Positions 44,169-62,159 of a stretch of DNA of 64,000 bases are shown in pieces. Every line of letters begins with the position of its first letter. Position 1 is the stretch's first letter. Origin of the DNA: Spirochaetota bacterium (lineage in GTDB: Bacteria > Spirochaetota > Spirochaetia > Treponematales > UBA12059); NCBI GenBank assembly GCA_022703505.1, contig JAKLDN010000008.1, positions 158,422 through 222,421 of the forward strand, written 5' to 3'. Made by a program: the position numbers and the translations under genes. The notes under the pieces are model-generated. The model saw only the letters and a list, made by a program, of their open reading frames with translations. It was not told the origin of the DNA and made no database searches.

Positions 44169-44179
44169 GAGGGAGCCCC

Positions 44180-44989
44180 CTACAGGACGGCGCCCCGGGA
44201 GACCATCAGGGCCAGGACGGCCAGGGGCGCGTCCAGCAGGGCGTGGGCTCCCATCAGGTACGGGAGGACCGTGGGCCGCCGGTCGATCACCCAGCCCGTC
44301 CAGAGGGCGAAGGGCAGGAATCGGAAGGCGAGCCATAAGGCGTACAGCGGGTCGGGACGGAAGGACAGGAAGAGGTGCTGGAGGGAGAGGACGGCCCCCA
44401 CGGCCAGGATCGTCCTCCATCGGCCCCATCCGGAGGCCCGCAGCCGGGGCGCCGCGTACCCCCAGTACAGAGGGAGCTCCGCGAGGCCCTGGCCCGCGGG
44501 CACGAGCAGGAACAGGGGATAGACCGCGGCTTCCGGAAGGGGACCGAAGAGCAGGTTGTTCGGGATCGAGGAGCCGCCCCAGAACGCCTCGGCGAGCAGG
44601 AAGCCCGGAACCATCGAGAGCACCCCGGAGACCACCATGAAACCGGCCAGCCAGGCCAAGTCGCCCTTCCAGGTCGATCCCCGGGCGCAATACAGATCCC
44701 GCATCCGGAGGCCCTCCCGACGGGCCGCGGCGGCCAGGAATCCGAGGGAGGCCGCGTTGGCCGCGCTCAGGTACCAGAGCCACCCGGCCGACGCCCGTCC
44801 GAAGGGATCGACGACGCCCCGGGCCGCGAGCATCCCGGCGGCAGCCAGGAGAAGGGCGAAGGGCACGAAGCAACGCAGGCCCATGGCAAGCCAGGCCCGG
44901 CGGAACAAGGACTCCCCCGAGACGCGGACGGCGATCGATGCCCGGGAATCGGGAAGATCCCTCGCCGCCTCTCCGCCGGTATCCCGCAT
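44180..44989 (-). CDS. CPBP/Abi-family intramembrane metalloprotease
   Basis: Polytopic membrane protein with LAEAFW and HLFLSF-type conserved Glu/His patches. Confidence 0.55.
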   Translation of the reverse strand: MRDTGGEAARDLPDSRASIAVRVSGESLFRRAWLAMGLRCFVPFALLLAAAGMLAARGVVDPFGRASAGWLWYLSAANAASLGFLAAAARREGLRMRDLYCARGSTWKGDLAWLAGFMVVSGVLSMVPGFLLAEAFWGGSSIPNNLLFGPLPEAAVYPLFLLVPAGQGLAELPLYWGYAAPRLRASGWGRWRTILAVGAVLSLQHLFLSFRPDPLYALWLAFRFLPFALWTGWVIDRRPTVLPYLMGAHALLDAPLAVLALMVSRGAVL

Positions 44990-45043
44990 GTCGCCTCCTT
45001 CCCGGGTTCGGCCCGGCCGTTCGCTGTCCAGTGCATCCTGAGG

Positions 45044-45250
45044 GTCGACGAAGCACGCGGCGCCTCGTTACCTTACAAACTACTGGAAATCGCCGAAGGG
45101 CGATGCCCTTCGGCGTCGAGCATATCCGGCGGATCGACGAAGCGCGAAGCGCTTCGTTGCCTTCAAACTACTGGAAATCGCCGAAGGGCGATGCCCTTCG
45201 GCGCCAAGCATATCCGGCGGATCGACGAAGCGCGAAGCGCTTCGTTGCCT
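45044..45250. repeat. About 2.4 tandem copies of an 88-bp unit, each with two hairpins
   Basis: Units start near 45044, 45132 and 45220. Each contains CGACGAAGCGC-gaa-GCGCTTCGTTG and CGCCGAAGGGC-gat-GCCCTTCGGCG stem-loops. Copy 1 is diverged. Confidence 0.7.
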
Positions 45251-45292
45251 TGAAAAAACGACGGCGTACCCTACGGTACGCCGTCGTTTTTT
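45251..45292. terminator. Bidirectional rho-independent terminator
   Basis: AAAAAACGACGGCGTACC-cta-CGGTACGCCGTCGTTTTTT. Perfect 13-bp stem flanked by an A6 and a T6 run. Confidence 0.85.
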
Positions 45293-45295
45293 CAA

Positions 45296-45340
45296 GCTCC
45301 CCCGCGGTGACTCGAACACCGGACCCAGTGGTTAACAGGC
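45296..45340 (-). other. tRNA 3'-end-like fragment (T-arm + acceptor 3' strand); candidate att site at the island boundary
   Basis: Minus strand reads GGGTC-CGGTG-TTCGAGT-CACCG-CGGGGGA-G. The upstream 50 nt are AT-rich with no D-arm, anticodon arm or matching 5' acceptor. The terminator lies directly 3' of it. Confidence 0.5.
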
Positions 45341-45566
45341 GAACTTTCTATTACTTTGGATTATCACCGCCTGTCACTATTTATAATTATAGCAAGTATT
45401 TGCTTAGTTTTCAATAGTATGCGTTAGCAAGCGTTTTTATGGTTTTTTTAGATTTTTGCGCCCAATTTGCGCCCAGTTATTTATTGCTAACTATGCAATA
45501 GAAGAGGAAGCTCACCAAGCATTTTTATAGCCTTCGTCCTCAGTATGTACATGCTTCACCTCCTTA

Positions 45567-46823
45567 TCAAGCTCTTTTAAAAGCTCCCTGCATCCGCTCA
45601 ATTTCAGGCCTACGGATGCCCAGAGCCTTCGCCCGCACCTGCCACCTCGAGACCACCCCGCGTATCGCCTCCATGATCGAGAGTGCCTCGGGCTTTGAGA
45701 GCCTGAAGTACTGCGCGACCGATAGGGCCAAGTCGAAATCCAACGAATTGTCATGCTCGTCGATGGCGAGGGAGAGGCCCGCCGAATCAGGCGAGGGATT
45801 GATGTCGTAGGCGGGAGAAAGCCACCAGCCCTTCGCATCGAGGAGGAAGCCATGATTCCGAAGATGGTCGTCGGTGTTGGAAACGGCGATGGAAAACACG
45901 ATGCGTTTCCAGAGCTCCCGCAGATCGGCGTCGGGCCGGGATCCGGAGCGCATGATGAACTCCGCGAGCTCGAGGTAGCTTGCGCCGGCCTCGGCGTCAT
46001 CGCCGTCCTTGCGGCCGAGCAAGGTCATGGCGGAGGCGAAATGGATACGTCCCTCTCCTTGGCGATCGAAGCGCTTCGTCATGAAGGTGGAGCCTCGCTT
46101 CGAGAAGGAGTCTAGCCTGCATTCGCTCATCTCGATGCCAGCTGCGCAGGCGAGGTCGGCGACGAGCATCTCCCAAGCGCCTGAGTCGCGTTCATCATCC
46201 TTGCCCGGGAACTTGGCTATCCAGAGTTCGCCCTTCTCGTCCACTACGCTAGCCTTGGGCCTAGCGCCTCCGAGCGAGGAGCCGGGCGCAATCAACATGG
46301 CGAGCCAGGGGTCGAGCTTGTCGTCATCCTCTTCATGTTCCGCGAGGAAACTCGCATACTCGAGATCGCGTAGCGTTGACCACGGCGGGGCTGCCATAGC
46401 CGTATCCAAGCTCTGATAGGCTTCGTTGCCTGGTATCTTAAACCGCAAGGCGCCCAAACGATTCTTATCATGAACGCCGAGGAGGTACTCCGCTTCTCCG
46501 AGCCTTCGCGGCGTCCGCCCTTCCTTCCTTGCCAAGATGGCCTCGCGCCGCCTCATGAGGACGCGGCCCCAACGATCGGGAGAGGAATCCAGGAACAGGC
46601 CGAAATTTGGCTTACCCACCCCGGCATACTGGGGTCCCTTATAGAATCGCAGATCAGGGTCGAGCGTTCGGTTGTCGTCGCGGCGAAGCCATGCCGCGTC
46701 GTACTCGAAGGAGAAGACTTCCTTGCCGCGCGGCGCTTGGACGGACAACGTGCCGAGATGGGCAACGGATCCAAGGCCGAGCCAATCGGCATACACTTCG
46801 ATAGTGCGCCCGGCGTCGCTCAT
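45567..46823 (-). CDS. hipA: HipA-family Ser/Thr kinase toxin
   Basis: 418 aa. SNTDDHLRNHGF catalytic loop. Confidence 0.85.
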   Translation of the reverse strand: MSDAGRTIEVYADWLGLGSVAHLGTLSVQAPRGKEVFSFEYDAAWLRRDDNRTLDPDLRFYKGPQYAGVGKPNFGLFLDSSPDRWGRVLMRRREAILARKEGRTPRRLGEAEYLLGVHDKNRLGALRFKIPGNEAYQSLDTAMAAPPWSTLRDLEYASFLAEHEEDDDKLDPWLAMLIAPGSSLGGARPKASVVDEKGELWIAKFPGKDDERDSGAWEMLVADLACAAGIEMSECRLDSFSKRGSTFMTKRFDRQGEGRIHFASAMTLLGRKDGDDAEAGASYLELAEFIMRSGSRPDADLRELWKRIVFSIAVSNTDDHLRNHGFLLDAKGWWLSPAYDINPSPDSAGLSLAIDEHDNSLDFDLALSVAQYFRLSKPEALSIMEAIRGVVSRWQVRAKALGIRRPEIERMQGAFKRA

Positions 46824-47149
46824 GATTCATCCTTCTTCGGCGACTTTCGGGCACGCCGTCGGCTAGGAAGCTTGGCGTCCTGGAGAGCGCGTCCGAGCTC
46901 GTCATCGAGCGCGACAGCCTCGAGGTCCTTCTCGAGTCCCAGCACGAACAAGACCTGTATCCAAGTAGCCATCGATACCGAGCCGGAGCCATTCTCGAGG
47001 GCGCTCAGGGTCTGTCGGCTGATGCCCGCCCGTTCGGCAACCATCTCGGCGCTGAGATCGCGTCGGAGCCGCGCCAGTCGGATATTCTCGCCGAGCGTTT
47101 CGAGGCTACGTTGGACACTGGGCAATAGGACCGGGAGTTTCTTAGGCAT
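46820..47149 (-). CDS. hipB: HipB-like XRE-family HTH antitoxin
   Basis: LSAEMVAERAGISRQTLSALENG HTH. 4-nt overlap with hipA. Confidence 0.75.
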   Translation of the reverse strand: MPKKLPVLLPSVQRSLETLGENIRLARLRRDLSAEMVAERAGISRQTLSALENGSGSVSMATWIQVLFVLGLEKDLEAVALDDELGRALQDAKLPSRRRARKSPKKDES

Positions 47150-47353
47150 AACGTATAATATAATAGGCATAAAAGGTATATCTGTCAAATTATTACGACG
47201 TAAAACTGAATAACACAACTCACATGCAAAGGTGGTTCTTACAAAATGTCGAGAATCGGACTACTTTGATGTTCCTGACACGGCCACTTCATTGACCATA
47301 CCCTAGAAGGTATCTCCATGGTTTATACCTTGATGGGTAAATGGTAAGAAAGG

Positions 47354-47779
47354 CTATTGAACGATAGGCGTCTTCCCGTCCTTAACCTTGCTAGTCGTCT
47401 TAGCTGCAATCCGCGAGGCGGAGCCCCGGGACTTAGAAACTCCACGAGCACTGGAGGGTTGAGTAGCATAGGTCATAATCCGTTCACGCTGAATGAAGCC
47501 ATGGTCCTTCCGGAGGACTTCCAGAAAACGGCAAGCAGCGCCATTCGGGACGTTCCGACCAGCTTCCCAGGCCTCAACGGTCTTCTTAGCGACTCCAAGA
47601 ACTTGGGCGAAAACAGTCTGGGAAAGCCCAAGAGCGAGCCGGAGTGCCTTAACCGCATGGGCATCATAGGTGGGAAGCGGTGCTATCTTGATCGCTGTAG
47701 TCTTGAGCTTAAGCTTGCCCTCTTGATGAGCCTTGACCTCAGAGAGGCCACGCATGATGCTCTCGAACGCTTCGCCCAT
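47354..47779 (-). CDS. HigA-like HTH antitoxin
   Basis: LRLALGLSQTVFAQVLGVAKKTVEAWEAG HTH. Sits immediately downstream of the toxin. Confidence 0.7.
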   Translation of the reverse strand: MGEAFESIMRGLSEVKAHQEGKLKLKTTAIKIAPLPTYDAHAVKALRLALGLSQTVFAQVLGVAKKTVEAWEAGRNVPNGAACRFLEVLRKDHGFIQRERIMTYATQPSSARGVSKSRGSASRIAAKTTSKVKDGKTPIVQ

Positions 47780-47780
47780 A

Positions 47781-48109
47781 TCAGTCTCCTAACAGTCCCT
47801 TTACGTACGTCTTGATCGCCTGCTTCTCTTCGGAGCTCAGGTTGTCCTTCTCATCCTTACCGAAAACAGTGATGAGATAGATCAGGCCGGACGCCCGCAT
47901 ATCGAGATAGATCGTCCGCAGGCTCCCGGATTCCCCCTACCTTCGCGCGCCCAGCGCAGCTTACGCACACCACCTGTTCCCTGGATGACCGGAGCGATCT
48001 CCGGATGCTCGAGGAGGTAGTTCTGGAGCTCGCGGAGGTCATCCTCCGTCATCCCGAGGGCCTTCCATCGGGATTGGAACTCCTTGGTCTCTACAAAGGT
48101 TCTCGTCAT
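47781..48109 (-). pseudogene. RelE/HigB-family toxin disrupted by a -1 frameshift in a G5 homopolymer
   Basis: N-terminal MTRTFVETKEFQSRWKAL...GVRKLRWAREGRG in one frame. C-terminal ESGSLRTIYLDMRASGLIYLITVFGKDEKDNLS in another. Adding one G at about 47935 restores a 108-aa toxin. Confidence 0.7.
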
Positions 48110-48302
48110 CCAGTATACCAGACCACCCTATCTAATAGGGTACTTAGAATGAATATAGCTCTGTGAGAGACTCTCGTCTAGAAGAGGGAAGGATATGAAA
48201 GAGGAAACTCGATAAAGCGGTTTGACGCGCTCGAGCGAGTACTAGCAGGTACAGAATGTCTCTCCCCCATATCGCGTTGCCCTGAAACAGCCTGTGGGTT
48301 AA

Positions 48303-48338
48303 GACTAAAAAGCCCGCCCCATAAGGGAGCGGGCCAAG
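48303..48338 (-). terminator. Intrinsic terminator after the 327-aa gene
   Basis: Minus strand GGCCCGCTCCC-ttat-GGGGCGGGC followed by TTTTTAG. Confidence 0.55.
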
Positions 48339-48340
48339 GG

Positions 48341-49324
48341 TCATTCCAGGAAGCTATAACGGGACTTCATGTAGCGCGCCCAGGGTTCCAGCTCCGGGTG
48401 CCGGTCAGTCGGGACATACCGGAAGAGCTGTTCAGTCGGGATGTACCTGAACTCGTCGGGCATGAGGAGCAGTGTCGGCCACAGCTCGTAGAGGTCGCGG
48501 AAGAACTTACGGTAATGCGGCGAAGTGATGGACCGAAGTTCACGATTAGCTCCGACGGCAATGTGGACCACGATGACGTTATCGACCTCGGGGATGCCGA
48601 CCTCCAGGATGCGGGATGCCAGGAGTTGATGCCGGGCAAGCTGATACATCGGCTCATAGAGCAGGTATTCGATTCGCGGTACAACCTCCAGATTGAACGG
48701 TGTAAAGGGACCATAGAAGATCTCGCGGTAGGTATCCACGCGATCCGAGCCATCGGTCCTAAACCTCTTGTACTGGGACGAATAACTCTCGGTAAACTTA
48801 ACCTCGCACAGCATGAAGACCTTGCGATCATCCATGGTCTCAAAGCACATCGCAGCGTCGATGGAGGTTGAGCCAGCACCGCGAATCCGGTCGGTACCGA
48901 CATGAGATTCCTCCCCTAGGTAGTTGATGTCGCCCTGCCACTCGAAGGCGATGAACGCATCCTCCTCCACAGGGAGCATTCGTTTGATCTCGGGGAATTG
49001 CGGACGAAGGAAGTCAGCCAGAGCATCCGGGCGATTGCGGAACGGGAAGAGCGTGTTGACGCAGAATATCTGGCTGGAACAGGTATGGTTGGTTGGCAAG
49101 CCAGGAAGCGCGGCTCCATGCCAGACGATGCCAAGGCGCTCGAAGGTAGCCAGGGCATCGTCCCGGATCTCATGGAACAAGTTGTAGGCGGCGAGCTCAA
49201 GCGGGAAGCAGAATGGGTACATACGGCTCCGGTATAAGCCCGGAGCCCTGGCCTCGCGCGGGAGAGCCTTGCTGGTCAGCTTCCACTCCAACTGCATCTT
49301 CTTGGCGACGGAGAGGTAATTCAC
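48341..49324 (-). CDS. Hypothetical protein, possible PD-(D/E)xK-type nuclease
   Basis: 327 aa. DDRKVFMLCEVKF resembles a D...E-x-K patch. Sits downstream of the RecT-like gene. Confidence 0.35.
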   Translation of the reverse strand: MNYLSVAKKMQLEWKLTSKALPREARAPGLYRSRMYPFCFPLELAAYNLFHEIRDDALATFERLGIVWHGAALPGLPTNHTCSSQIFCVNTLFPFRNRPDALADFLRPQFPEIKRMLPVEEDAFIAFEWQGDINYLGEESHVGTDRIRGAGSTSIDAAMCFETMDDRKVFMLCEVKFTESYSSQYKRFRTDGSDRVDTYREIFYGPFTPFNLEVVPRIEYLLYEPMYQLARHQLLASRILEVGIPEVDNVIVVHIAVGANRELRSITSPHYRKFFRDLYELWPTLLLMPDEFRYIPTEQLFRYVPTDRHPELEPWARYMKSRYSFLE

Positions 49325-49338
49325 GATAAAGTCCTCCC

Positions 49339-50253
49339 CTACGCCGTAGCGGTCATGCTGGCAACGTTCTTGAGCACCTTCCGCGCGTAGGCGACCATGC
49401 GTTCCACGCCATCGGCGCTGTTCGACTGACGGGCCTTGGCCAGAATCCAGTCCTGATGCTTAGGCGTGAAGGCATCCTCGTTGTCCTCGAGGATCGAACG
49501 GAGTTCGCCCTGGAGACGATTCATCTTGGTGATCTCGTCTTCGGGTTCTGGCTCGGGCTCTACCTCGGGTAGAGGCTTGGTCGCTGGCATGAAGGGCTTT
49601 GGGTGGTCCTCAACAGTGGTAGTATTCATCGCAGGCCGTTCCGACATGGTCGGAAGAGGTACAGGAGTGACCGGCTTATCCTGGATACCAACGCTTTCTG
49701 CATCGGGGAGTTCGGCCGGATCGTAGGGCATGCCGCCGAGCTCCGAGGGAAAAGCCAGGCGGAAGCCTTGGGAAATCGCGACCTTCTTTAACTGAAACTT
49801 GGGCATCTTGGTCCAGAAAGACGTGGGTTGGCCATCGCGCTTCCGCTGGACTGCTTCCTTCCAGTAGACCTCATGTACGAAGGGTGAGTGCCAGTCCTTG
49901 CGGTGGATCTCGACAAGAGCCTTCATATCCTCGCCCTGGCCTTCGACCCAGGCTCGCCAGCCGTCGAGCTGGCTGGTGCGCTCGGCGCGGTCAAGGTAAG
50001 TCTGGTAGCCTACAACGATTGACATGCGCCGGTACTCGCCTTCGCCGTAGACCGCCACGTGGATCTCTCTTTTAAACGGGTTGAGGTGGAAGGCCTGAGC
50101 GACCTCGATGAATTGGAGCTTCTCCTCCTGGGTGAGCTGGGTCGCGAGGCCGAAGGCGGTGAGGTAGTCGAGCAGGGTCTGCTTCTGGACCTCGTTGGTA
50201 GGAAGGGGCGGCCCCTCGCGAGGCTGGGTGGGGAACGGTGATACTGTGGACAT
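49339..50253 (-). CDS. RecT/Bet-family single-strand annealing protein
   Basis: VVGYQTYLDRAERT and WTKMPKFQLKKVAI blocks parallel E. coli RecT (IIGYRGMIDLARRSG, W..MAKKTAIRR). TAGGAGGT RBS. Confidence 0.65.
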   Translation of the reverse strand: MSTVSPFPTQPREGPPLPTNEVQKQTLLDYLTAFGLATQLTQEEKLQFIEVAQAFHLNPFKREIHVAVYGEGEYRRMSIVVGYQTYLDRAERTSQLDGWRAWVEGQGEDMKALVEIHRKDWHSPFVHEVYWKEAVQRKRDGQPTSFWTKMPKFQLKKVAISQGFRLAFPSELGGMPYDPAELPDAESVGIQDKPVTPVPLPTMSERPAMNTTTVEDHPKPFMPATKPLPEVEPEPEPEDEITKMNRLQGELRSILEDNEDAFTPKHQDWILAKARQSNSADGVERMVAYARKVLKNVASMTATA

Positions 50254-50410
50254 GGGAGACCTCCTAGGGGATGGATCTCCAATATCAGTAGTATCGCCAT
50301 ATACGACCAGGAAGTAGAAATGTCCCAACCGAAGCCCAAGCTGGATGTTCATTGACAGCACAATTGGCGCGGTGTACTGTCCATAAGATACTTAACTGGA
50401 GGTAAAAACG

Positions 50411-50611
50411 ATGGCAGATGTATCTACGTCAGGATTCAATGGAACGACAGACATCCCAACGCAAGTCTTCGAAAGCTTCCTTTCGGAGCTGAAGAGCACC
50501 GGAGCATCGAGCGAGATGATCGAAAGACTTCGCAAGACGTTGCTCGAGGATCACATCTTCACAGAAGGCGCTCTAAAGACCGCCGTTCTAGGTGAGGAGA
50601 CGTCGCTATGA
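50411..50611 (+). CDS. Small 66-aa protein translationally coupled to the ATPase
   Basis: GGAGGT RBS. Stop overlaps the ATPase start (ATGA). Confidence 0.5.
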   Translation: MADVSTSGFNGTTDIPTQVFESFLSELKSTGASSEMIERLRKTLLEDHIFTEGALKTAVLGEETSL

Positions 50612-53061
50612 TCCGCGTAGACTCCATTACGATCAAAGAGTTCCGCGGAATACGTGATCTGACGCTCAATCTAAAAGGCAAGAACTATGCGGTCTGCGGT
50701 CCTAATGGGACTGGAAAAAGTGGCGTAGTGGATGCCTTGGAGTTCGCGCTGACTGGTAACGTCTCCCGCCTCTCTGGCAGAGGGAAAGGTGAAGTATCCC
50801 TCAAAGCCCATGGTCCCCATGTTGATCAAAGAAATGCCCCTGACAAGGCTCGAGTAACCGTGATACTAACTATCCCTAGCTTGAATAAGTCAGTCACAAT
50901 CGAACGAAGTGTAAAGGCACCTGCATCTCCTGTAATAACTCCCAATGAGCCAGACGTGCTCGCAGTTCTTCAACACGTCACGAGTCACCCCGAAATCGTA
51001 CTCTCTCGTCGAGAGCTGATTAACTACGTGTTAGCAACTCCTGGTGATCGCGCGCAGGAAGTACAAGCATTGCTCCATTTGGATCGAGTTGAGGAGGTTC
51101 GTGGCACGCTTCTCAAGATCGCTAATGCCTGTGATAAGCAGGTAGCTCCGCAGGCAAGCGCCGCTATATACGCCCGCGATAACCTAATGCGAGCGCTGGA
51201 AGTAACAGAGCTTACGAGTGCAACCATTCTCGAGGCAGCAAACAAACGGCGAGTTATGCTTGGGTTGATAGCACTCACCGAGCTAACTGAATCCGCTTCA
51301 TTAAAAGATGGGATGTCACAGTCCGAAGCAGCTCAATCTTCTGGTGTTCCTAAGGCGCAAACTCTGGCGGACATCCAAGTAACCCGCGAATCATTGGTAG
51401 AGCTTGGAAACGACTCGACTAAAGCACTAATAAGTGGTGTTGTAGCGGACCTCGGCGCCTTGACTGGTGACTCGGCTTTAGAAGCAAGTGTGAAGCTAGA
51501 ATCATTCTACGCAATGGGAATGGGCTTCATCGACAGGGGTTCATGCCCATTCTGTGATGATGAGTGGGATTTGGACGAACTGAGGCTTCATGTCCAGGGG
51601 AAGCTTGATCACCTCAAGCAAGTAGCACTTAGGCGCAGAGTCATTGAGGATAAGCTTATCCCCTTGATCTCGCTTCTTAGGAAACTAGCTAGCAACCTGG
51701 ACTCATTGATTAGTCAAGCGCAGCTTGTGAAGGCACCGGATGTGATGGCAAGCGTAAGCGGCTACAGCGTATATTGCAGAGAAGCATCGAGCAAATTGAC
51801 TACGATACTACCTCTCGCGGATACCATCAAGCAACTCATGGATTTGTCCGCTGTCCCCGATGGTACGATTAATGCGATCACATCGCTTGAAACACTAGTC
51901 TCAGGTCTTCCTGAGCCCACTAAACAGGAAGGGGCCCGAGAATGGCTCACCATTGCACAAGAGCGTCTTCAGGTATGGAGGGAATCGGTTCGACTGCATG
52001 AACTCCTGAAGGAACGAGCCAAGAGCGCTCGAAGGGTATATGACACGTATGTATCGGCGAGTGACAAGAAACTTGTTGGACTGTATGCGGCTGTTGAAAG
52101 GGACTTCTCGAGTCTGTACCGCTTCGCCAATCGAGACGATGAGGACAAGTTCAATGCGAAGATGGTGCCTTCCATGGGGAAGCTTGGATTCGATGTAGAC
52201 TTCTATGGGCGTGGGTTCTTCCCGCCCGGCGCTTATCATAGTGAGGGCCATCAGGACAGCATGGGACTTTGCCTGTACCTAGCACTAATGCGACACATCC
52301 AGGGAGTAGGATTTACATTCGCGGTGCTTGACGACGTGCTCATGTCGGTTGACGCTGGTCATCGCCGGGAAGTGTGCACGCTTCTAAAGACAGAATTTCC
52401 TGACACTCAGTTCGTCCTGACAACGCACGATCCAATCTGGCTTCGACATATGAAGACTGAGGGACTTCTTGCAAGCCGCTCATCAGTGCTATTCAGAAAC
52501 TGGTGCGTAGACGCGGGGCCCTCTCAATGGGAGGAGGAGGATGTCTGGAGTGAGATCGATGGACACCTCGAATTAAATGACATCCGAGCGGCTGCTGCCC
52601 TACTAAGGCATTACCTCGAGTATGTGTCGGCCGAACTGTGCCAACGACTTCGGGCATCAGTAGAGTATCGAGGCGATGCTCAATATCAGCTAGGGGAACT
52701 ACTCCCACCTGCAATTACTCAAATGAGAACGCTTATCAAGCGCGCTAAAGAAGCTGCAAGTTCATGGGATCAAAGAGAGGCTCTTGGGGCATTGTCAGCG
52801 CGCGAAGTAAGGTTCGCGGATTTGGTGAAGGCCACTAATTCCGATGCATGGCAAGTGAATACAGCAGTACACTATAATTCTTGGGATAGCCTTGGCAAGA
52901 ATGATTTCGCTCCGGTCGCTAATGCATACCGAGAATTGCTAGGTGGCTTTACCTGCTCGGGATGTGGAGAGTACCTTCGGGTATCGCCAGACAGAGAGAC
53001 GGCTGAATCGCTTCGCTGTGATTGTGGTGAAACAAATATTAACCTAAAGAAGAAGTCCTGA
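50608..53061 (+). CDS. SMC/Rad50-like ABC ATPase with zinc hook (RloC-like) and C-terminal Zn-ribbon domain
   Basis: Walker A GPNGTGKS. Coiled-coil insert carrying CPFC. Walker B/D-loop VLDDVLMSVD. H-loop TTHD. C-terminal CSGCG...CDCG. Confidence 0.7.
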   Translation: MIRVDSITIKEFRGIRDLTLNLKGKNYAVCGPNGTGKSGVVDALEFALTGNVSRLSGRGKGEVSLKAHGPHVDQRNAPDKARVTVILTIPSLNKSVTIERSVKAPASPVITPNEPDVLAVLQHVTSHPEIVLSRRELINYVLATPGDRAQEVQALLHLDRVEEVRGTLLKIANACDKQVAPQASAAIYARDNLMRALEVTELTSATILEAANKRRVMLGLIALTELTESASLKDGMSQSEAAQSSGVPKAQTLADIQVTRESLVELGNDSTKALISGVVADLGALTGDSALEASVKLESFYAMGMGFIDRGSCPFCDDEWDLDELRLHVQGKLDHLKQVALRRRVIEDKLIPLISLLRKLASNLDSLISQAQLVKAPDVMASVSGYSVYCREASSKLTTILPLADTIKQLMDLSAVPDGTINAITSLETLVSGLPEPTKQEGAREWLTIAQERLQVWRESVRLHELLKERAKSARRVYDTYVSASDKKLVGLYAAVERDFSSLYRFANRDDEDKFNAKMVPSMGKLGFDVDFYGRGFFPPGAYHSEGHQDSMGLCLYLALMRHIQGVGFTFAVLDDVLMSVDAGHRREVCTLLKTEFPDTQFVLTTHDPIWLRHMKTEGLLASRSSVLFRNWCVDAGPSQWEEEDVWSEIDGHLELNDIRAAAALLRHYLEYVSAELCQRLRASVEYRGDAQYQLGELLPPAITQMRTLIKRAKEAASSWDQREALGALSAREVRFADLVKATNSDAWQVNTAVHYNSWDSLGKNDFAPVANAYRELLGGFTCSGCGEYLRVSPDRETAESLRCDCGETNINLKKKS

Positions 53062-53240
53062 TGTCGCTTCTAGCTTTCGAAAGATAGAAGGCACTTTCTC
53101 CTCCTCGGGCTAGGTTTGTTAATGCCATCCTTAGACATGATAGCATTATACTATTGGACGGGATCTCCTACAGTATAGAGAGGGATTTATCAGCGCAGGG
53201 AATATGGCGGAAAACCAAAACCTACAATCAAGCATCATGT

Positions 53241-54146
53241 CTAAGGCACAATGCTGAACAGGAAGTCAGCCATCTGCTCAAGAACGGCTATGCTCTTCAC
53301 CACCTCATCCTTCGTGATCATGATAGATCGACCGAGATCGCCGCCCTTCCCCCCGGTCTTCCTGATATAATCCTCGTCTATCACTCCCATCGTGTGAGCT
53401 AACAGGTGGCGGTTCTGAAACTGCACCTGGATAAAGCTCCACTCGCCTTGGCCGATGCACGAAGGGAAGCCCCTACCGAAAAGTCTGGATATTCGATCGT
53501 TAGCGCCTGAGAGATTCTGGAAAGATATCTTAGGATCGTGCTTGCGACAGAGCTCTCTACCAAAGCCATCGAATGAGGCTACCGCATCCTCTAGAGCATT
53601 CTCGGTAAGCTTCTTTGCGATGTCGCTGCTTGAAGTATCTGCCAAGGTAAGCATCGTGGTAACAATCCTGAAGTTATCGCGAAGTATCTGGAGAGAGTTA
53701 TGAGTCCCACAATCAGGGCAATAGCCGAATGCTCCATAGATCGCATACTCGAGGGTGCATGCAGAACAGGTCGCTCTATGTTCCAGGGTCTCCTCTGAGT
53801 AGTACGCAATTGGTGTAGGACTCCCCTTCACCGTAATCCCAATGGATAACATGGCATGAGGGTCGGGCTTCCTCTCCATCCTCTTGAGTTGTGAGAGTAA
53901 TTGGCTTGACAACTCATGCAACGCGATAGACTGAGCATACTTGATTTGTTGCTTCGTCCAGAATTCAGATTGAGGACCGGTATAGTTGCAGTATGGGCAA
54001 TGACAGGGCACTTCTCCCGGAAGACCGGTCCCGAATTTGATCTTGAAGTACTTCTCGCATTGAGGGCACTCTCGACCGATGTATCCCTCTCCATCTGGCG
54101 ATATCTTTATTGCATACTCCATCTCGACCTTCCAGGTTCCCCTCAA
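53241..54146 (-). CDS. Multi-zinc-ribbon hypothetical protein
   Basis: CPQCEKYF, CHCPYCNY, CSAC, CPDCG cysteine pairs. 301 aa. Confidence 0.5.
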   Translation of the reverse strand: MRGTWKVEMEYAIKISPDGEGYIGRECPQCEKYFKIKFGTGLPGEVPCHCPYCNYTGPQSEFWTKQQIKYAQSIALHELSSQLLSQLKRMERKPDPHAMLSIGITVKGSPTPIAYYSEETLEHRATCSACTLEYAIYGAFGYCPDCGTHNSLQILRDNFRIVTTMLTLADTSSSDIAKKLTENALEDAVASFDGFGRELCRKHDPKISFQNLSGANDRISRLFGRGFPSCIGQGEWSFIQVQFQNRHLLAHTMGVIDEDYIRKTGGKGGDLGRSIMITKDEVVKSIAVLEQMADFLFSIVP

Positions 54147-54158
54147 TATCTTAAGCGC

Positions 54159-54494
54159 TTAGAACACAATGTCTCCAGGATTCTCCTTCGAACTCGACAT
54201 CAGAGCCGTCGTAGCTAGCCTTTGAAGCTGGAGAACACCCTTCGAACCCACAGTTAAGCGCTCAATCTCAGCCAAATCCTTATTCTTGGTCGCGAGTCTC
54301 AGTTCCCTGGTATGTTCCCGTATGTGGCCGAGAAGCAGCTTCACGGTGAACTGGTTGACTTGCCAGACAAGATCGCTAGATATCACGTCCGCCCGTACCG
54401 TAGCCATCCCTGACTCATCCAAGCTTCTTCGAGCAGAATCAAGAGATGAGGCAAGCCTCTTCGCAAGCTGCATCCTTGCAGACATAGCCATCAT
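54159..54494 (-). CDS. Hypothetical 111-aa protein
   Basis: Co-directional and tightly spaced with the flanking genes. No recognisable motif. Confidence 0.4.
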   Translation of the reverse strand: MMAMSARMQLAKRLASSLDSARRSLDESGMATVRADVISSDLVWQVNQFTVKLLLGHIREHTRELRLATKNKDLAEIERLTVGSKGVLQLQRLATTALMSSSKENPGDIVF

Positions 54495-54669
54495 TCACCT
54501 CACATTGTCATGAAAATCGCCCAAAGCTGTTCCCGTACATCCCAACCCGCCGCATCCCACTTCATCGCCCAGACGAAGTGCCCTTTGACCTTCGACGCGC
54601 AGGCCCGTGATCTACCCTTCTCTCGCAGGATTCGGTTAGTGTGGAACTCTAGGCAGTTCAGCACTGCTA

Positions 54670-55086
54670 CTATTTCCTCCTGAATTGGTGCCAGACAGTG
54701 ATGATGCTCTTAATAAGCCTTCTAGCCATCGTAGTCTTAGGGGCAAACAGCTTCTCGGCTACATCATTCTGGAGTCTTCGTATGCGTTCTATCTGCTTTC
54801 GAGTCATCTTGCTAGACCAAATGACATGCCCTTGGCGGATCCAGTAATGTGACTCGCAGGCAAGTTCCCAGTTTCCGACTGAAGGGAAAAGTGTTGGGAC
54901 ATCATCTTTAATCACTAAACGCCATTCTCCAGGACCTAATGGCGTCACAACTTCATTACCGCAACCACAAGGACACAAATGTATTGCTGTTGAAAATCTG
55001 TCTGACACGTAAAGTACACCTGGTTCAAGAGTGTCTGGGATAATATCTACTCGTTCGATGCGTAGGGAGACGGTTCTCTCGCTCAT
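54670..55086 (-). CDS. Cys-rich small protein (DUF6527-like) downstream of the E1-like gene
   Basis: 138 aa with HLCPCGCG. Start overlaps the E1-like stop by ATGA. Confidence 0.55.
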   Translation of the reverse strand: MSERTVSLRIERVDIIPDTLEPGVLYVSDRFSTAIHLCPCGCGNEVVTPLGPGEWRLVIKDDVPTLFPSVGNWELACESHYWIRQGHVIWSSKMTRKQIERIRRLQNDVAEKLFAPKTTMARRLIKSIITVWHQFRRK

Positions 55087-56336
55087 GAAGACTTCTTTGC
55101 GATATCATTCCACTCAAGAGTGTAGGCACTAAGGCATTCATGAGTAGCATCTTGATAATACCCAATATGTTTCTTCCACCTAATGACAGCTAAGGCCGCA
55201 TTGAGCGCATTAAGGTCCGCGACTTGGATGTTGGATCTGTATAGCTCATCTCCATCTTCGCCAAATGGAGCGGTCATGTTGAAGAAACTTTCTGCTTCCT
55301 TGGTCCCGGTTGACACTCTGCAAATACCAGAAATAGTTCTACTCTTCCCACCATCATTGTCGACTGCCTCAAGGCCCATTCCAACATCAATGAAGGGGAG
55401 CTCAAGACTGAAGAGCAGACTGGAAATCTCATTGCGGACAGACCCGGCATCGACAGCAACGAAAACAAACGCTAGGCTAGAAAGAAGATCACGGTGCGAA
55501 CCATCGACCTTGAGCTCATGAGCCTTGATTCCACGATGTATCCGACTATATGTAGCAGAAAGGTATTGTGCCTTCGTAGTAAGGCTTCCCTTAAAAGTTT
55601 CGAGGGATGCAGCGCCAGGCGTTCGGAAGGCGTTATGTTGGTGGAAGTGGTCATAGTCAAATAGGTGTATCTCTTCAACCGGAGTCTTCGCTACAAGGTC
55701 GAGGATATAAGAACCGGTTCCACCGAGGCCGATGATCCCGACTCGCATCCCTTTGAAAAGATGAGACAGATCCGAAAGTCCAGCCCTTGCAGTCGCGGTG
55801 TCCTCATAGACAAATGGTGTAGGTTCACGAACAGTACGTTCCGCCTTAAATGTTCGAGGCGTCATCGTATCATCGACACGCTTCGCTGGATAAGCTATAA
55901 GCTCCTCATAACGGTGAACTTTGTCCAGAAGAGTTGCGTAGACTCCTTCGGGTGGTTTCGACGATAGATGAAAACCAGCGACACCGCATGTCGGGATTGC
56001 AAAACCGGCGTTCTCGTTGGCGAGTATATTGATGGGGATGTCCGCAGAACTATGGGGCTTCTCACCCATGAAATAGAACGTATGGTCTTCCGCAGTAAGC
56101 TTGCCATCCCGGGTGACAACCTTGCAGGCGAGAACACTTAGACCGATGCTCCCATCAGCTTTGAGGTATGGGAAGTCTCGAAGAATCAGAAGAGAATCTA
56201 GTATCTCGGCATTATAGCCTTCGCTGAGTAGCTCAAGGAGCTCAGCATCAGGACTTGTCGGTTCGTTTGACATTAAAGGACATCCCCTTGTGAACCGCTG
56301 TCGACTCTCCCGGAACCAGGATACCGGTCTTTCCAT
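55083..56336 (-). CDS. E2-like/E1-like (ThiF/MoeB superfamily) fusion protein
   Basis: C-terminal half has GIIGLGGTGSYILDL nucleotide loop and DYDHFHQHNAFR. N-terminal 150 aa has an HPN-like EKPHSS...IPTCG His/Cys patch. True start probably the Met at 56273. Confidence 0.7.
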   Translation of the reverse strand: MERPVSWFRESRQRFTRGCPLMSNEPTSPDAELLELLSEGYNAEILDSLLILRDFPYLKADGSIGLSVLACKVVTRDGKLTAEDHTFYFMGEKPHSSADIPINILANENAGFAIPTCGVAGFHLSSKPPEGVYATLLDKVHRYEELIAYPAKRVDDTMTPRTFKAERTVREPTPFVYEDTATARAGLSDLSHLFKGMRVGIIGLGGTGSYILDLVAKTPVEEIHLFDYDHFHQHNAFRTPGAASLETFKGSLTTKAQYLSATYSRIHRGIKAHELKVDGSHRDLLSSLAFVFVAVDAGSVRNEISSLLFSLELPFIDVGMGLEAVDNDGGKSRTISGICRVSTGTKEAESFFNMTAPFGEDGDELYRSNIQVADLNALNAALAVIRWKKHIGYYQDATHECLSAYTLEWNDIAKKSS

Positions 56337-56502
56337 TCTCCGGAATGAGGAAAGTTATTGTAATGTTGGCGGTTGGAGGTAATGTCTCCCCTGGAAAAGC
56401 AAGCTTAAGAAGATCCTCATAGCTAATCCGTCCGTGCGGAACTTCCTTCGGCCTTGAGTTTACATAGACTTCTACCAAGTTGGCTCTTTCAGCGTCGGGC
56501 AT
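56248..56502 (-). CDS. Ubiquitin-like (beta-grasp) small protein
   Basis: 84 aa immediately upstream of, and overlapping, the E1-like gene. No C-terminal GG (ends KRTDKS). Confidence 0.5.
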   Translation of the reverse strand: MPDAERANLVEVYVNSRPKEVPHGRISYEDLLKLAFPGETLPPTANITITFLIPENGKTGILVPGESTAVHKGMSFNVKRTDKS

Positions 56503-56635
56503 ACTATACCTCCCATTGAGTGAATGATGTTGTATCGATCCTAAGCGATACTTAAAATATCTAATAGCCCCAGCGAGGGCAAGATCATACCGAGCATGAG
56601 TTACATGTTGACCTCTTCGACCGGATAACGCCTTT

Positions 56636-59326
56636 CTAATAAATACTCAGAGCTACCTTAAGCTGCCCCCTCAAATCCCTACCCGCCTCATCCCTCTTCA
56701 TCGCCCAGACGAAGAGTGCTTTGCCTTTCGACGCGCGGGCCCAGAGCTCGCCTACTCGGCGCTTCTCGCGTTCTGAGGGATCGGCTGCGATGTGGGCACC
56801 CTTGTACTCGACGACGAGGACGCGGCCATCCTTGAGCCTGGCAATGAAGTCTGGATAGAAGTCGTCTCTCGAGGTAGGAAGGCGGAAGCACCACTGATGT
56901 CGGGGTGGGACGTTGCGTACCCAAGTCTCGACTTCGTCGAGAGCGTCGATCTCCTTGGCGCAGGCGTATTCCTCGCCGTCGCGCTTCAGGTTGTCGACGA
57001 CGGAGAAGAAGTGTTTGGAGAATCCATAGGAGGAAGCAGGCTCTGCCCGTGGGTAGGGACAGCGGTCTTTCGAGAAGGAGAAGTCGCCTTCCCAGACGAG
57101 GCTGCCATCGAGCTCGGGAAGGTCAAGAAGCGACTCAAGTCCTAAGGACGCGGCGCTGAGGCGGTACGAGTCGAGCTTCGCCCTGATCTTATCCTCGAGA
57201 AGGTACTTTTGGAGGATGAGGTCCCCAAGGCGGAGCTTTCGCTCGTCGATGAGCTGGTGTATGAGGCGGGACAAGAAGTCCTGGAGGACCAGCTGGGACA
57301 CGTCGCTCCGCGCGAGGCGGCGATCGAGCCAGAACACGAGGCCGTTTAGGTAGTACTCGCCTGCGACCTCGGCGGTGAAGAGCTCTCGGTCGTAGCGGGT
57401 GTTCCGGGTGATGACTTTCTCGGCAACGACATCAAGCTCCGTGACCTTCCGCTCGGCAGGTACGGAGAACTCCTCCAGTGTGAGGCGAGCGGGGAAGCGC
57501 GACGCATCCGAAAGGTCGAGACGTCCACGGTTGGCAAACCAGCCCTCGTCAATGGGAATGAGCTCGCCTGAGACCTCATCGCGGGAGAAGAGAGAGCCCA
57601 CCGTGAAGACATCGGGGCCAGCAGGAAGGACGCGATGCCGGGAGGCTTGAAGAAGGCGATAGTTGCCAAGGTTGCGCGCGATATCGCGCGTGCGCTCGCC
57701 ACCGGCATCCGCCCCGAGGGTCTCCGCGAGCTTGGCGATCGTAGCCTCGGTGATCGAGCCAGAAACCCTGACGAGAGGGACACCGTCTGAACGAGTACCC
57801 GCAGTCTCGACAACAAGGCCAGACTCGGCGGCGAAGAGGCCAAAATCGAGAGCAGCATACGCGGGTATTGCAATGGACCGACCATCAGGCGCGAGACCGA
57901 CTATGGTGCCAGAGCCTTCACCTGGAAAGAAATCCGCCACCTCGGTCCATGCGTCCGCTTCTATGCGCTCGAAGCCCATCTTGTCGACGAGGCAATCCTT
58001 GAGCGCGGAAGCCGTCTCGGCGAAGTCGCGTGAGGAAACATGGGCATAGGCCTTGTTCAGCAATGCCGAGGGACGCTCCTCCGCGTAGGGCATCCGCAAG
58101 ACACGGCCGAGAAGTTGCTCTACAGCACGCGCGGATTTCAGTTCCTGGATAGAGCAGAAGACATAGGCGAAGGAGCAATCCCAGCCTTCCTTGAGGGCTT
58201 GCACGGTGATGATGTGCCGGATGGAACAATCCGGCGCGAAGAGGTTGACGCCTTCGATGCCGCGCTCGTCTCCGGTCGCCACGGCGATATGGGCGGGATC
58301 GATGCCCTCATTCTGGATGAGGTGTTCGCGAAGCCTGTCGGCGGTGATGACCGTCGGATCATCTTTGTCCTTGGCTTGAGCCTGGTAGAGGGTGATGGGC
58401 CGCACTGAATCCCCGGAGGCCTTGGCGGCTTCTTCTAGGGAGTTTCGGGTGCTGATGGCCGCGGCGACGGTCGTGGCCCAGCTGGCGTGCTCGGCAAGGA
58501 CTATCGGCAGCTTGATCATCTTTTCGGCCTTGAGCTCGGTGGCCGTGGCCTCGTGGAGGACATTTGAGCCGCTGGCACTGCTCGTGTCGGGTGTGGCGGT
58601 AAACTCGATGATACCGAGGGGAGAAAGGCGGGCGAGCGTATCGAAGGAGAGCTTCGACCGGGCGTTGTGCGCTTCGTCGATGATGATGAGCGGCTTAAAG
58701 ACATGGCAGAGGTTGACGAAGGAATGGACGGGCTTTCCCCGGTTGGCTCCTTCCTTACCGAGCTCGAGCCCCGCTATGCCATTGAGGGCCGCGAAGTGAC
58801 GCTCCCATCGTTCGGAATGAGCATAGATGGTTCGGGTTTTCGTGTCTTCCGCTTTGAAGCCCTGGATAGTCGAAACCACGACGACAAGTCGTGTAGAAAA
58901 GTCCTGGGGACTTACCGCTTCGAGTCCATCTCTCGTGACCACAAGAGGACGGCCCCAGGCCTCGACGAGCTCCTCCCGATATGGATGCCCGGCAGTTGAA
59001 AGAGCTGTGAGTGTCTGTTCGAGAATAGCCTGCGATGGGACGAGCCACAGCACATGAAGTGATTGACTGTAGGTATAGCTGTCGCGCACGATGCGCAGGG
59101 AACGCGCAGCGAGCCAGGTCTTGCCGCCTCCGGTCGGGATGCGAATACAGACATAGGGTATATCGCCCACACCCGGAGCCTGGTGCCAGCGAGTAACCGA
59201 GGGACGGCCACGCACGCTCCAGGATTCAATGAAGGCAGCCTTGGGATCGCCAAGGCGCTTGGCTCGCTCGAGGTAGTCCTTCAGGGATTCGAGGGCCTTT
59301 GCCTGGTAGATCTTGGGCTCAAACAT
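56636..59326 (-). CDS. res: Type III restriction enzyme Res subunit (SF2 helicase-nuclease)
   Basis: IIDEAH DEAH box, TATP motif, helicase C blocks. Start overlaps the mod stop by 8 nt. Confidence 0.85.
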   Translation of the reverse strand: MFEPKIYQAKALESLKDYLERAKRLGDPKAAFIESWSVRGRPSVTRWHQAPGVGDIPYVCIRIPTGGGKTWLAARSLRIVRDSYTYSQSLHVLWLVPSQAILEQTLTALSTAGHPYREELVEAWGRPLVVTRDGLEAVSPQDFSTRLVVVVSTIQGFKAEDTKTRTIYAHSERWERHFAALNGIAGLELGKEGANRGKPVHSFVNLCHVFKPLIIIDEAHNARSKLSFDTLARLSPLGIIEFTATPDTSSASGSNVLHEATATELKAEKMIKLPIVLAEHASWATTVAAAISTRNSLEEAAKASGDSVRPITLYQAQAKDKDDPTVITADRLREHLIQNEGIDPAHIAVATGDERGIEGVNLFAPDCSIRHIITVQALKEGWDCSFAYVFCSIQELKSARAVEQLLGRVLRMPYAEERPSALLNKAYAHVSSRDFAETASALKDCLVDKMGFERIEADAWTEVADFFPGEGSGTIVGLAPDGRSIAIPAYAALDFGLFAAESGLVVETAGTRSDGVPLVRVSGSITEATIAKLAETLGADAGGERTRDIARNLGNYRLLQASRHRVLPAGPDVFTVGSLFSRDEVSGELIPIDEGWFANRGRLDLSDASRFPARLTLEEFSVPAERKVTELDVVAEKVITRNTRYDRELFTAEVAGEYYLNGLVFWLDRRLARSDVSQLVLQDFLSRLIHQLIDERKLRLGDLILQKYLLEDKIRAKLDSYRLSAASLGLESLLDLPELDGSLVWEGDFSFSKDRCPYPRAEPASSYGFSKHFFSVVDNLKRDGEEYACAKEIDALDEVETWVRNVPPRHQWCFRLPTSRDDFYPDFIARLKDGRVLVVEYKGAHIAADPSEREKRRVGELWARASKGKALFVWAMKRDEAGRDLRGQLKVALSIY

Positions 59327-60977: not shown

Positions 60978-61014
60978 AGGCTGTCCTTGTCAAAGAGCTC
61001 GCGAGCTGGTTTCA

Positions 61015-61455
61015 TTATAGAATCCAAGGGAGCGGTAGAGCGGTGATTCCGAGGCGGCTCATGCCGTCGTGCACGTGCTGACGGAGAAAAGGCCACATGG
61101 TCTTCTGGATCTGGTTCTCATGGAAGACCTTGCGCACTTCTTCATCCTTCCAGAGTTCCTCGAAGGTGGGAACATCCGTGAGATGAAAGACGATGAAGAA
61201 CACGGAGACCTGACGGAAGATAGGGGCTCCCTGGAAGCTCACGGTGATCTCGTATCGCGGGCGGAAAATACGGGTTTCGCCGTTGACCAGGACAGGATCG
61301 CCATCAGCGAAAACCTGGTTCCATCCGAGGTTGATCTCGCTATTAGGCGCAGGCATCTCCCCGAGCAGATCGGAGTGAAAAGACATCGGCTTGATGTCTT
61401 GCAGGCTCATCGACTTGAGGAGCCGCGTGAGCCGCTCGTTGATCGTTTCGCTCAT
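61015..61455 (-). CDS. Hypothetical 146-aa protein coupled to the MqsA-like gene
   Basis: 4-nt overlap with the upstream antitoxin gene. No recognisable motif. Confidence 0.4.
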   Translation of the reverse strand: MSETINERLTRLLKSMSLQDIKPMSFHSDLLGEMPAPNSEINLGWNQVFADGDPVLVNGETRIFRPRYEITVSFQGAPIFRQVSVFFIVFHLTDVPTFEELWKDEEVRKVFHENQIQKTMWPFLRQHVHDGMSRLGITALPLPWIL

Positions 61456-62159
61456 GAGGCTACCGAGAGAGGCGCCGGAGCCTCAGACTTCATATCAATG
61501 ACCTGGGCAACGCCGGTAGACCAGCTGATGCCTTCCATGAGGCGGGAGTAATCCCTGAATGAGGAGTCACCGACATAGCGGGCGACTTGTTCGGGGACAG
61601 TGCGACCAGCGCGCGTGGCGCACTCCTCCACCTTGACCCGTTGAAGCTCGGTGAGTTCACGGCTCAAGGCTTCGAGTCCTTCCCAGGAAGAAGCAGCCTT
61701 GTATCCAGGGGACTCCTCGATCCTGCGACGTTGCGTCATCCCGATCTTCCCCGAGTTGATGTCGTACATCGCCTTGAAGGTGCAGGGATCGGCGGCGAGT
61801 TTGAGGAGGAGACGATTGGTCGAGTCGGGCGTACCCCCGCTCTCATAACCGTTCATGGTGAGCTCGCCGAAACCGAGGATCGCGCCAAAGGCCTTCTGGC
61901 TGGCATTGTAGCAAGCGCGCAGGGAAACGAGGGCTTCGGGCGACGGTGCCTCATAGAGACGGGCATACGCCTCACGCGCGGCGTCTAGATTGGTGTCGAG
62001 TTGGCCTGGGGCCTCGAACTCGTCTCCGCAGGTGAGGCAGCGCGAGTAGTGGGCTTTATAGGAGACCTCCCTGCCCTTGATTGTCACCTGTTCAACCCGC
62101 TCGATGATCTCGATATCTCGGGTTACCCCGCAGCGGGAGCACGGCAGTCTATTGCTCAT
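61452..62159 (-). CDS. MqsA-like antitoxin (N-terminal Zn-ribbon + XRE HTH) with C-terminal extension
   Basis: CSRCG...CLTCG zinc ribbon. LRACYNASQKAFGAILG HTH. Confidence 0.65.
   Translation of the reverse strand: MSNRLPCSRCGVTRDIEIIERVEQVTIKGREVSYKAHYSRCLTCGDEFEAPGQLDTNLDAAREAYARLYEAPSPEALVSLRACYNASQKAFGAILGFGELTMNGYESGGTPDSTNRLLLKLAADPCTFKAMYDINSGKIGMTQRRRIEESPGYKAASSWEGLEALSRELTELQRVKVEECATRAGRTVPEQVARYVGDSSFRDYSRLMEGISWSTGVAQVIDMKSEAPAPLSVAS

Follow-up and report, generated by a model that had tools for sequence, protein, structure and literature searches.

The 64,000-nt stretch analysed here (the window) belongs to an uncultured Spirochaetota bacterium, and its sequence is that of contig Ga0116241_10000121 (230,451 bp) of JGI metagenome 3300010429, with window position x equal to Ga0116241_10000121 position x + 156,258; contigs L001 and L033 were 100% identical. 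On its minus strand, positions 45297-45338 carry a 42-nt piece that matched the 3' part of intact tRNA-Asn(GTT) genes, and beside it, at 45250-45295, lies a perfect hairpin. The base composition changes at this point. GC content was 68.3% over 1-45296 and 54.7% over 45339-64000, with 1-kb windows on the latter, island side ranging from 0.48 to 0.61 and a minimum of 34% in the 100 bases after 45400, and the tetranucleotide profile changed in the same 4-kb bin as the fragment. An earlier reading of the DNA (the sequence-only reading) had seen a GC drop from about 68% to about 50% and had proposed profiling GC and tetranucleotides. Both profiles did switch at the fragment, and the drop and its upper level agreed with our values, but the lower level is about 55%. 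GC was lowest (0.48-0.50) at 52-56 kb, where the tetranucleotide correlation with the host was only 0.02.

Read along the minus strand from 45338 to 45297, the 42-nt piece is CTGTTAA-CCACT-GGGTC-CGGTG-TTCGAGT-CACCG-CGGGGGA-G. After the anticodon loop (GTT = Asn) come the 3' half of the anticodon stem, a variable loop of 5 nt, the whole T-arm, the 3' acceptor strand and the discriminator G; CCA is not encoded. The T-arm (CGGTG-TTCGAGT-CACCG) and acceptor 3' strand recognised in the sequence-only reading are therefore present, and its remark that no D or anticodon arm precedes them is half right, because the fragment does hold the anticodon loop and the 3' anticodon-stem strand. All 42 nucleotides were identical to the 3' ends of the intact tRNA-Asn genes in four contigs. 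L010, L011 and L012 were reached by an exact 42-nt search, which returned three loci in genome contigs and one in metagenome contigs, and L013 was reached by a ParC look-up. The tRNA homology ended exactly 5' of the anticodon loop (alignments A1 and A2). In A1, the window tracked the intact genes base for base from the terminator to the anticodon loop and then diverged wholly, with GAAAGTTCGC in the island versus GCAAGTGG in the tRNA. Sub-strings of 23 and 19 nt from the fragment occurred once each in the window, where the chance expectation was 0.

ARAGORN called no tRNA at 45297-45338, and a Rfam search with the fragment gave sub-threshold hits only, the one tRNA-like match being a weak mascRNA (16.7 bits, E = 2.2). 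Because the fragment is half a gene, the silence of both programs was not counted as contrary evidence; the absent call reflects a real half gene and not an annotation error. As sources of the U1-A72/G73 acceptor, tmRNA, tRNA-Gln and tRNA-Sec were considered and dropped on the reading of the GTT loop and the 42/42 match to tRNA-Asn. The sole intact tRNA that ARAGORN found in the window was a tRNA-Arg(CCT) on the plus strand (8612-8685), around which the composition was unchanged.

One base separates the 3' end of the fragment from the hairpin at 45250-45295, which has a 21-bp perfect stem, a 4-nt loop, A6 on its 5' side and T6 on its 3' side, and a fold of -38 kcal/mol (z = -10 versus shuffles). 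With its A6/T6 flanks it is predicted to be terminator-like on both strands, and the perfect bidirectional terminator described earlier was thereby recovered. A simple terminator scan returned 0 sites at the hairpin because the A and T runs pair into the stem, and folding settled the point. The hairpin directly follows the intact tRNA-Asn gene in L010, L012 and L013 and also stands at the corresponding junction of L009 (A1), and the sequence changes among L009, L010, L012 and L013 preserve its pairing. By its fold and its position in these relatives, it is the native tRNA-Asn terminator (T_asn), displaced together with the fragment.

Two further features were seen on the native side. An 88-bp unit is repeated in tandem at 45045-45255 (2.4 copies, 92% matches, two GC-rich hairpins per unit), between a 269-aa ORF and the terminator and nowhere else in the window. 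About 1 kb (44173-45195), holding the 269-aa membrane-protein ORF (44180-44989, minus strand, no Pfam match) and most of the tandem repeat, was missing from the otherwise syntenic L009, L010, L012 and L013, and looks like a species-specific insertion beside the tRNA terminator.

In three related Spirochaetota genomes (L010, L012 and L013), an intact tRNA-Asn gene and its hairpin stand between Gfo/Idh/MocA and ParC genes with no island. These loci were syntenic with the left flank of the window (SBP-NagA-NagB-like-Gfo/Idh/MocA) at 86-94% DNA identity, and on the far side of tRNA-Asn they carried ParC and ParE, with an M20 peptidase before ParC in L010 and L013. GC was 0.64-0.72 on both sides of the tRNA gene in the two profiled sites (L010 and L012), and none of the sequence of window positions 45339-64000 was present in L010, L012 or L013. 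The island-free relatives to which the sequence-only reading had pointed as a comparison do exist, and they join the left flank to ParC at native GC. The count of empty sites from the same species was 0; all six contigs with an identical Gfo protein carry the island or break there. L009, a contig from another species with about 90% identity in the native flank, shares this junction and island end with the window.

Within the window, the island extends from 45339 to 64000 (18.7 kb of about 42 kb). It opens with an AT-rich non-coding end on the minus strand (45339-45566, 34-45% GC), which was 97% identical to L009, compared with about 94% for the rest of that island and about 90% for the native flank. 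The first island genes are hipA (45567-46823, minus strand; HipA_C, E = 2e-50) and a hipB-like HTH gene (46820-47218 as the longest ORF, minus strand; family match to HTH_3/HipB-type). They are accompanied in the window by a second HTH gene, a REase-ARP nuclease with RecT, an 817-aa SMC-like ATPase, a PDC-M14A-like protein, a DUF6527 protein with DUF6791/ThiF E1 and Multi_ubiq proteins, Type III Mod and Res, an MqsA-like protein and the start of a ParB-like gene that is cut by the window end. Beyond the window, the island genes include ParA, a two-component system, ArsR, a P-type ATPase, a transglutaminase, WYL, DUF6573, Gam and RadC. The switch in gene content noted in the sequence-only reading was borne out by HipBA, the Type III restriction-modification (R-M) genes, RecT and the ParB-like gene.

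Several of these genes resemble defence systems. At 48341-54146, a REase-ARP/PD-(D/E)XK nuclease adjoins RecT (minus strand) and is followed by the 817-aa SMC/AAA_23 ATPase, whose N-terminal part matched the PtuA, LmuB, GajA and mad3 models; the next gene matched the PADLOC candidate PDC-M14A, and PADLOC gave no match on the REase-ARP and RecT proteins. The minus strand of 54159-56502 carries a 111-aa ORF, DUF6527 (54670-55086), a DUF6791 + ThiF E1-like gene (55083-56336) with weak PADLOC E1-E2 matches, and an 84-aa ORF annotated as Multi_ubiq in the L002 copy. This ubiquitin-like conjugation module is probably a defence or conflict system. A complete Type III R-M pair lies at 56636-60977 (Res, PDLC03650, E = 7e-152; Mod, PDLC03644, E = 2e-181). 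Mod is shorter in L002 and broken in L003, indicating that the R-M module varies between island copies.

The contigs L002 (565 kb) and L003 (181 kb), which come from other samples, were compared over L002 1-1214 and L003 1-3690 with window positions 52973-56655. In the right part of the island they match the window at 87-97% identity; they depart from it left of 54.1 and 56.6 kb, respectively, and carry other genes to the left (a TatD DNase and a 1354-aa protein). These different left-hand genes indicate that the island family is mosaic. In a similar manner, two otherwise 99.6%-identical copies (L021 and L023) diverge abruptly at L021 position 3144 and L023 position 9363, between the transglutaminase gene and a 140-aa gene.

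Ga0116241_10000121 continues for only about 10.2 kb beyond the window, and its GC is still low where it stops. The contig thus ends inside the island, and the far end does not lie on it. We reached the far end by synteny, taking ParC of the empty site through a homology search to contigs. The ParC homologue P0003 identified two contigs of sample 3300010429 (L015 and L017, which are Ga0116241_10000101 and Ga0116241_10000019 of the same metagenome as the window) and three others (L016, L018 and L019). The gene order there was ParE-ParC-tRNA-Asn-int(425 aa)-331 aa-HTH_17, followed by several unassigned proteins, RadC and Mu Gam, and GC fell from 0.67 to 0.54 directly after the tRNA. L015 and L017 were 99.92% identical, and the presence of two such near-identical contigs indicates that the sample contains strain mixtures. 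The tetranucleotide correlation was 0.984 between the native parts of L015 and the window and 0.905 between their island parts.

When L015 is brought into the orientation of the window, which was fixed through L012 and L021, the intact tRNA-Asn at this end (L015 12469-12542, called by ARAGORN) is on the minus strand. The displaced fragment and the intact copy are therefore in direct orientation, which is one of the criteria of the Islander database. Three parts can be told apart in the far-end gene. Its 5' half and the following 19 nt (CTGTTAACCACTGGGTCCG) were identical to the native gene; its T-arm was CGTGG-TTCAAAT-CCGCG versus CGGTG-TTCGAGT-CACCG in the native gene; and its final CGGGGGAGC was again common to the native gene. 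The native T-arm was found only in unoccupied tRNA-Asn genes and in the window fragment (A2). The far-end tRNA is thus a hybrid of host and island, and the host 3' half sits in the window, the arrangement that defines tRNA-gene integration (PMC4383910). ARAGORN called the hybrid as tRNA-Asn(gtt), and in unconstrained folding its acceptor stem was paired and its T-stem mostly paired. The exact 42-nt scan had missed this end because the attL T-arm differs.

The sequence common to both ends is the 19-bp core CTGTTAACCACTGGGTCCG, which extends from the anticodon loop as far as the beginning of the T-stem and is identical at 45320-45338 (minus strand) of the window and in L015. To judge from this identity, strand exchange must have taken place within it. 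The sequence-only reading had suggested searching for a direct repeat of 45296-45340; the core is repeated exactly, but the stretch as a whole is not, the T-arm being divergent. The same reading had placed the intact tRNA and the integrase beyond position 64,000. Both do exist, but on other contigs, about 23 kb past the window end. Its central proposal, that integration into a tRNA gene had left a duplicated attachment core, agrees with the empty sites, the hybrid tRNA and the integrase at the far end.

The integrase gene starts 200 bp from the tRNA and encodes a protein of 425 aa (PF00589, E = 2e-18) that also matched phrog_1 'integrase' in PHROGs. Its scores against the XerC, XerD and integron models were far below their cut-offs (72 versus 335 bits, and similar), so that the island carries a non-Xer, non-integron tyrosine integrase adjoining the intact tDNA, as the Islander criteria describe. 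Residues R243, H353-x-x-R356, W379 and Y394 were invariant in nine homologues. A region of about 220 aa precedes the catalytic domain, and among solved recombinases only the catalytic domains of XerD, XerC and XerA were matched (E = 1e-5 at best). The HTH_17 protein near int scored above the TIGR01764 'excisionase' cut-off. Between the regenerated tRNA and int (L015 12551-12599) lie two island hairpins with a poor U-tract, and no sigma-70-like promoter was found in this interval.

The integrase was consistently associated with tRNA-Asn. Integrases with 67-82% identity (P0135 and P0124) lay beside tRNA-Asn at four further loci in three contexts (L027-L030), three of them beside ParC (or ParE where ParC was uncalled) and one in a different neighbourhood. 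The latter, L030 (5728-7278), combines an 82%-identical integrase with an island-type tRNA-Asn on a rubrerythrin/aminotransferase side instead of ParC, indicating that the integrase family follows the tRNA and not the locus. The island-type T-arm was present in the tRNA-Asn of all four loci, and the native T-arm in all four unoccupied genes.

A tandem motif, ACTGGGCGCAAA(C/T)TGGGCGCA, stands 70-140 bp from the core on both island arms, oriented alike with respect to the tRNA. On the window side, tandem ACTGGGCGCAAATTGGGCGCA with an 11-bp period occupies 45457-45477 (minus strand); copies of the TGGGCGCA motif on the other arm lie at L015 12615, 12626 and 12645, and the motif also occurs in L009 and L030. 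Elsewhere the 8-mer is rare, TGGGCRCA having only four matches in the 64-kb window and three in the 22-kb L015. We read these TGGGCGCA repeats as candidate arm-type integrase sites. The integrase resembles the heterobivalent (lambda-type) enzymes in its R...HxxR...Y set and long N-terminal region (~220 aa), and the locus resembles such systems in its tandem repeats on both arms, as candidate sites, and in an HTH_17/TIGR01764 excisionase-type gene near int. In contrast to those systems, binding of Int to the TGGGCGCA repeats is a prediction here, and the similarity to recombinases is limited to the catalytic domain.

The attL and attR ends lie on separate contigs of one metagenome and are bridged only by a related copy, L021 (MTLC01001447.1), which we reached via a transglutaminase cluster representative with 98% identity. 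L021 was 98.7% identical to the last 2.2 kb of L001 and 84% identical to the Gam-540 aa-RadC end of L015, the latter in reverse orientation as expected. The attL contigs reach about 12.4 kb into the island before they stop. When L001, L021 and L015 were set on one scale, arithmetic gave an island size of about 42.1 kb, in which L021 stands for the copy of a relative. On that scale, the two sample contigs stop about 0.65 kb apart, near the point where L021 and L023 diverge. Empty-site synteny, a common sample, composition and the bridging relative, whose identity on one side is only 84%, lead us to infer that the two contig ends belong to one element of about 42 kb.

These data support the view that 45297-45338 is the tail of the host tRNA-Asn gene at one end of a ~42-kb mobile island. 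We hold with high confidence the joint reading that the fragment is attR, the right-hand scar left when a tyrosine integrase inserted the island, and that the insertion locus is a single-copy ParC - tRNA-Asn(GTT) - Gfo/Idh/MocA locus of an uncultured Spirochaetota bacterium. On this reading, a circular island would have brought an attP resembling the 3' half of tRNA-Asn, and the integrase would have exchanged strands inside CTGTTAACCACTGGGTCCG, as in the anticodon-centred class of tDNA sites. The 5' half of the host gene would then have been joined to the 3' half from the island, with its different and still pairable T-arm, to give the regenerated tRNA-Asn beside int (attL), and the original 3' half of the host gene, together with its strong terminator, would have been moved about 42 kb away, to the position seen in the window. 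The expected attB would consist of the native 5' half, GGTGTTCGAGTCACCG and T_asn, and the expected attP would read ...AGTAATAGAAAGTTCGC, then CTGTTAACCACTGGGTCCG, then TGGTTCAAATCCGCGCGGGGGAGCAAGTTAAG. The proposed equipment of the island would comprise int, an excisionase-type HTH protein, ParA/ParB, phage-type recombination genes (RecT, Gam and RadC) and a cargo of defence and metal-resistance genes. The island may still be able to excise, but a scan of IMG/VR for the attP junction gave no match.

The two ends could instead come from different elements or genomes, as in a tandem array or a larger composite. The separate contigs, the presence of at least two strains in the sample (L015 versus L017) and the mosaic family, whose members part at 54.1/56.6 kb (L002/L003) and at L021:3144 (L021/L023), are all compatible with such an origin. 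Against an array, however, a search of the window, L001, L021 and the part of L015 that belongs to the island yielded no additional copy of the 19-bp core. Moreover, both arms carry the same arm-type motif, and L021 connects the halves with correct order and orientation, the contig ends being projected close together on its scaffold. We therefore regard this origin as unlikely. A decayed tRNA pseudogene, formed by local duplication or deletion next to low-GC DNA that is native and strain-specific, would need no site-specific integration at all, and tRNA gene fragments unrelated to islands are described in prokaryotic genomes (PMC9897764). Yet the break falls exactly at the anticodon loop, and the fragment is conserved at 100%. 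On the syntenic far side, an integrase has beside it a hybrid tRNA whose T-arm is foreign, and three related genomes have clean empty sites; this explanation is scarcely credible.

Integration of a temperate prophage would account for the same scar as a prophage attR. In its favour, the integrase matched a phage family (phrog_1), and RecT, the PD-(D/E)XK nuclease, Mu Gam, RadC and the excisionase-type HTH protein are phage-like functions. Against it, no terminase, portal, capsid, tail or lysis family was detected among those genes of the ~42 kb that were annotated or scanned with Pfam, or by PHROGs on 10 proteins; much of the length is taken up by defence, partition, two-component and metal-efflux cargo; and the attP junction pattern had no match in IMG/VR. 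A prophage is accordingly very improbable. No virion structural or packaging gene was found across the window, L001, L021 and L015 (Pfam annotations, and PHROGs on 10 proteins), and no relaxase, coupling protein or type IV secretion gene was found among the annotated or scanned genes of the ~42 kb (Pfam, PHROG and NCBIfam). Because neither structural nor conjugation genes were detected, we classed the element as a non-viral, non-conjugative genomic island. It is possibly mobilisable or plasmid-like, with five proteins (331, 531, 184, 313 and 544 aa) that had no match in PHROGs, Pfam or NCBIfam (PHROGs and Pfam only for the 184-aa protein) and among which a novel relaxase or a replication protein may be hidden.

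The arrangement of this island is the textbook one, and its mechanism is standard for tDNA islands. A displaced 3' fragment is recorded for 3760 of the 3919 islands in the Islander database (Hudson, Lau & Williams 2015, PMC4383910), and 2083 of the 3919 belong to the 'A' class, in which the identity block starts from the anticodon loop (PMC4383910; classes from Williams 2002, cited there). The Spirochaetota island shares with them the displaced 3' fragment, the 'A' class block and a non-Xer tyrosine integrase adjoining the intact tDNA, and shows the hybrid tDNA, the absence from the same site of relatives and the distinct composition that Islander takes as criteria. It differs from the Islander entries in its host, an uncultured Spirochaetota MAG from a metagenome, and its endpoints on two contigs make an Islander-style same-replicon call impossible on the present assembly.

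In the HPI and ICEKp1, the direct repeat at the 3' end of tRNA-asn is short, about 17 bp. The shared block of the present island, unlike that of ICEKp1, begins in the anticodon loop. ICEKp1 of Klebsiella pneumoniae, which is related to the Yersinia HPI family, integrates in tRNA-Asn genes (Liu et al. 2026, PMC13023037), and its integration was placed at the 3' end of tRNA-asn (PMC13023037). Experiments on ICEKp1 showed that T_asn is displaced, that transcription from the tRNA promoter extends through attenuating stem-loops into int, and that in the excised circle int is driven by a promoter at the 3' end (PMC13023037). The present island has the same target tRNA species, an int gene codirectional with the tRNA and about 160-200 bp downstream of it, and a tRNA-asn terminator moved to the opposite end of the element, this displaced T_asn being the window's perfect terminator. 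The island's own stem-loops between the tRNA and int, and a predicted promoter at the opposite end that faces outward, add to the likeness. With no conjugation genes detected, the element is not an ICE on present evidence.

The outward-facing promoter is a sigma-70-like sequence on the minus strand (45414->45386; TTGAAA-17-TATAAT with an extended-10 TG; consensus matched at 11 of 12 positions). Its direction is outward from the island, over the tRNA fragment toward the displaced terminator, and it is conserved in L009; its activity and use are predicted from its sequence. Once the island is excised, attP and int would lie in front of it, the situation described for ICEKp1. It is conceivable, though we consider it rather doubtful, that this island end acts as a state-dependent transcription switch like that of ICEKp1, in a non-conjugative Spirochaetota element. 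In that case, the promoter would drive int across attP only in the excised circle, and in the integrated state it would transcribe the displaced 3' half of tRNA-Asn up to the strong terminator. This would then yield a discrete RNA of about 130 nt that includes a tRNA half and might have a function of its own.

One boundary of a mobile island is hereby fixed to the base, and the genes from 45339 on are to be read as horizontally acquired cargo, not as core spirochaete genes. What is new here is confined to an element family of uncultured Spirochaetota. Such elements occurred in at least 24 index blocks (JGI, ENA, NCBI and Logan sources), and these tRNA-Asn-specific elements, with int, xis, ParAB, RecT/Gam and a defence and metal cargo, may form an undescribed plasmid-like integrative family of uncultured spirochaetes. 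The integrase, the excisionase candidate, the 19-bp core and the candidate arm sites together make a candidate recombination module targeting tRNA-Asn, which could serve in a phylum for which genetic tools are few.

Numerous independent assemblies break at the att core or within a few tens of bases of it, for example at the end of L008 (window position 45414), at the end of L018 (65 bp past the regenerated tRNA) and at the ends of L034-L036. Such breaks are expected where a repeat or population heterogeneity splits the assembly graph. The short contigs L034-L036, which end at the junction, were considered as carriers of an attP-type T-arm and set aside, as their sequence is of the attR type or stops inside the core. 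L034, which carries an identical HipA, ends at 3275-3304 in ...CTGTTAACCACTGGGTCCGGTGTTCGAACC, with a T-loop unlike the TTCGAGT of the window; this is either a third tRNA-Asn allele, from the island in another host, or a contig-end error.
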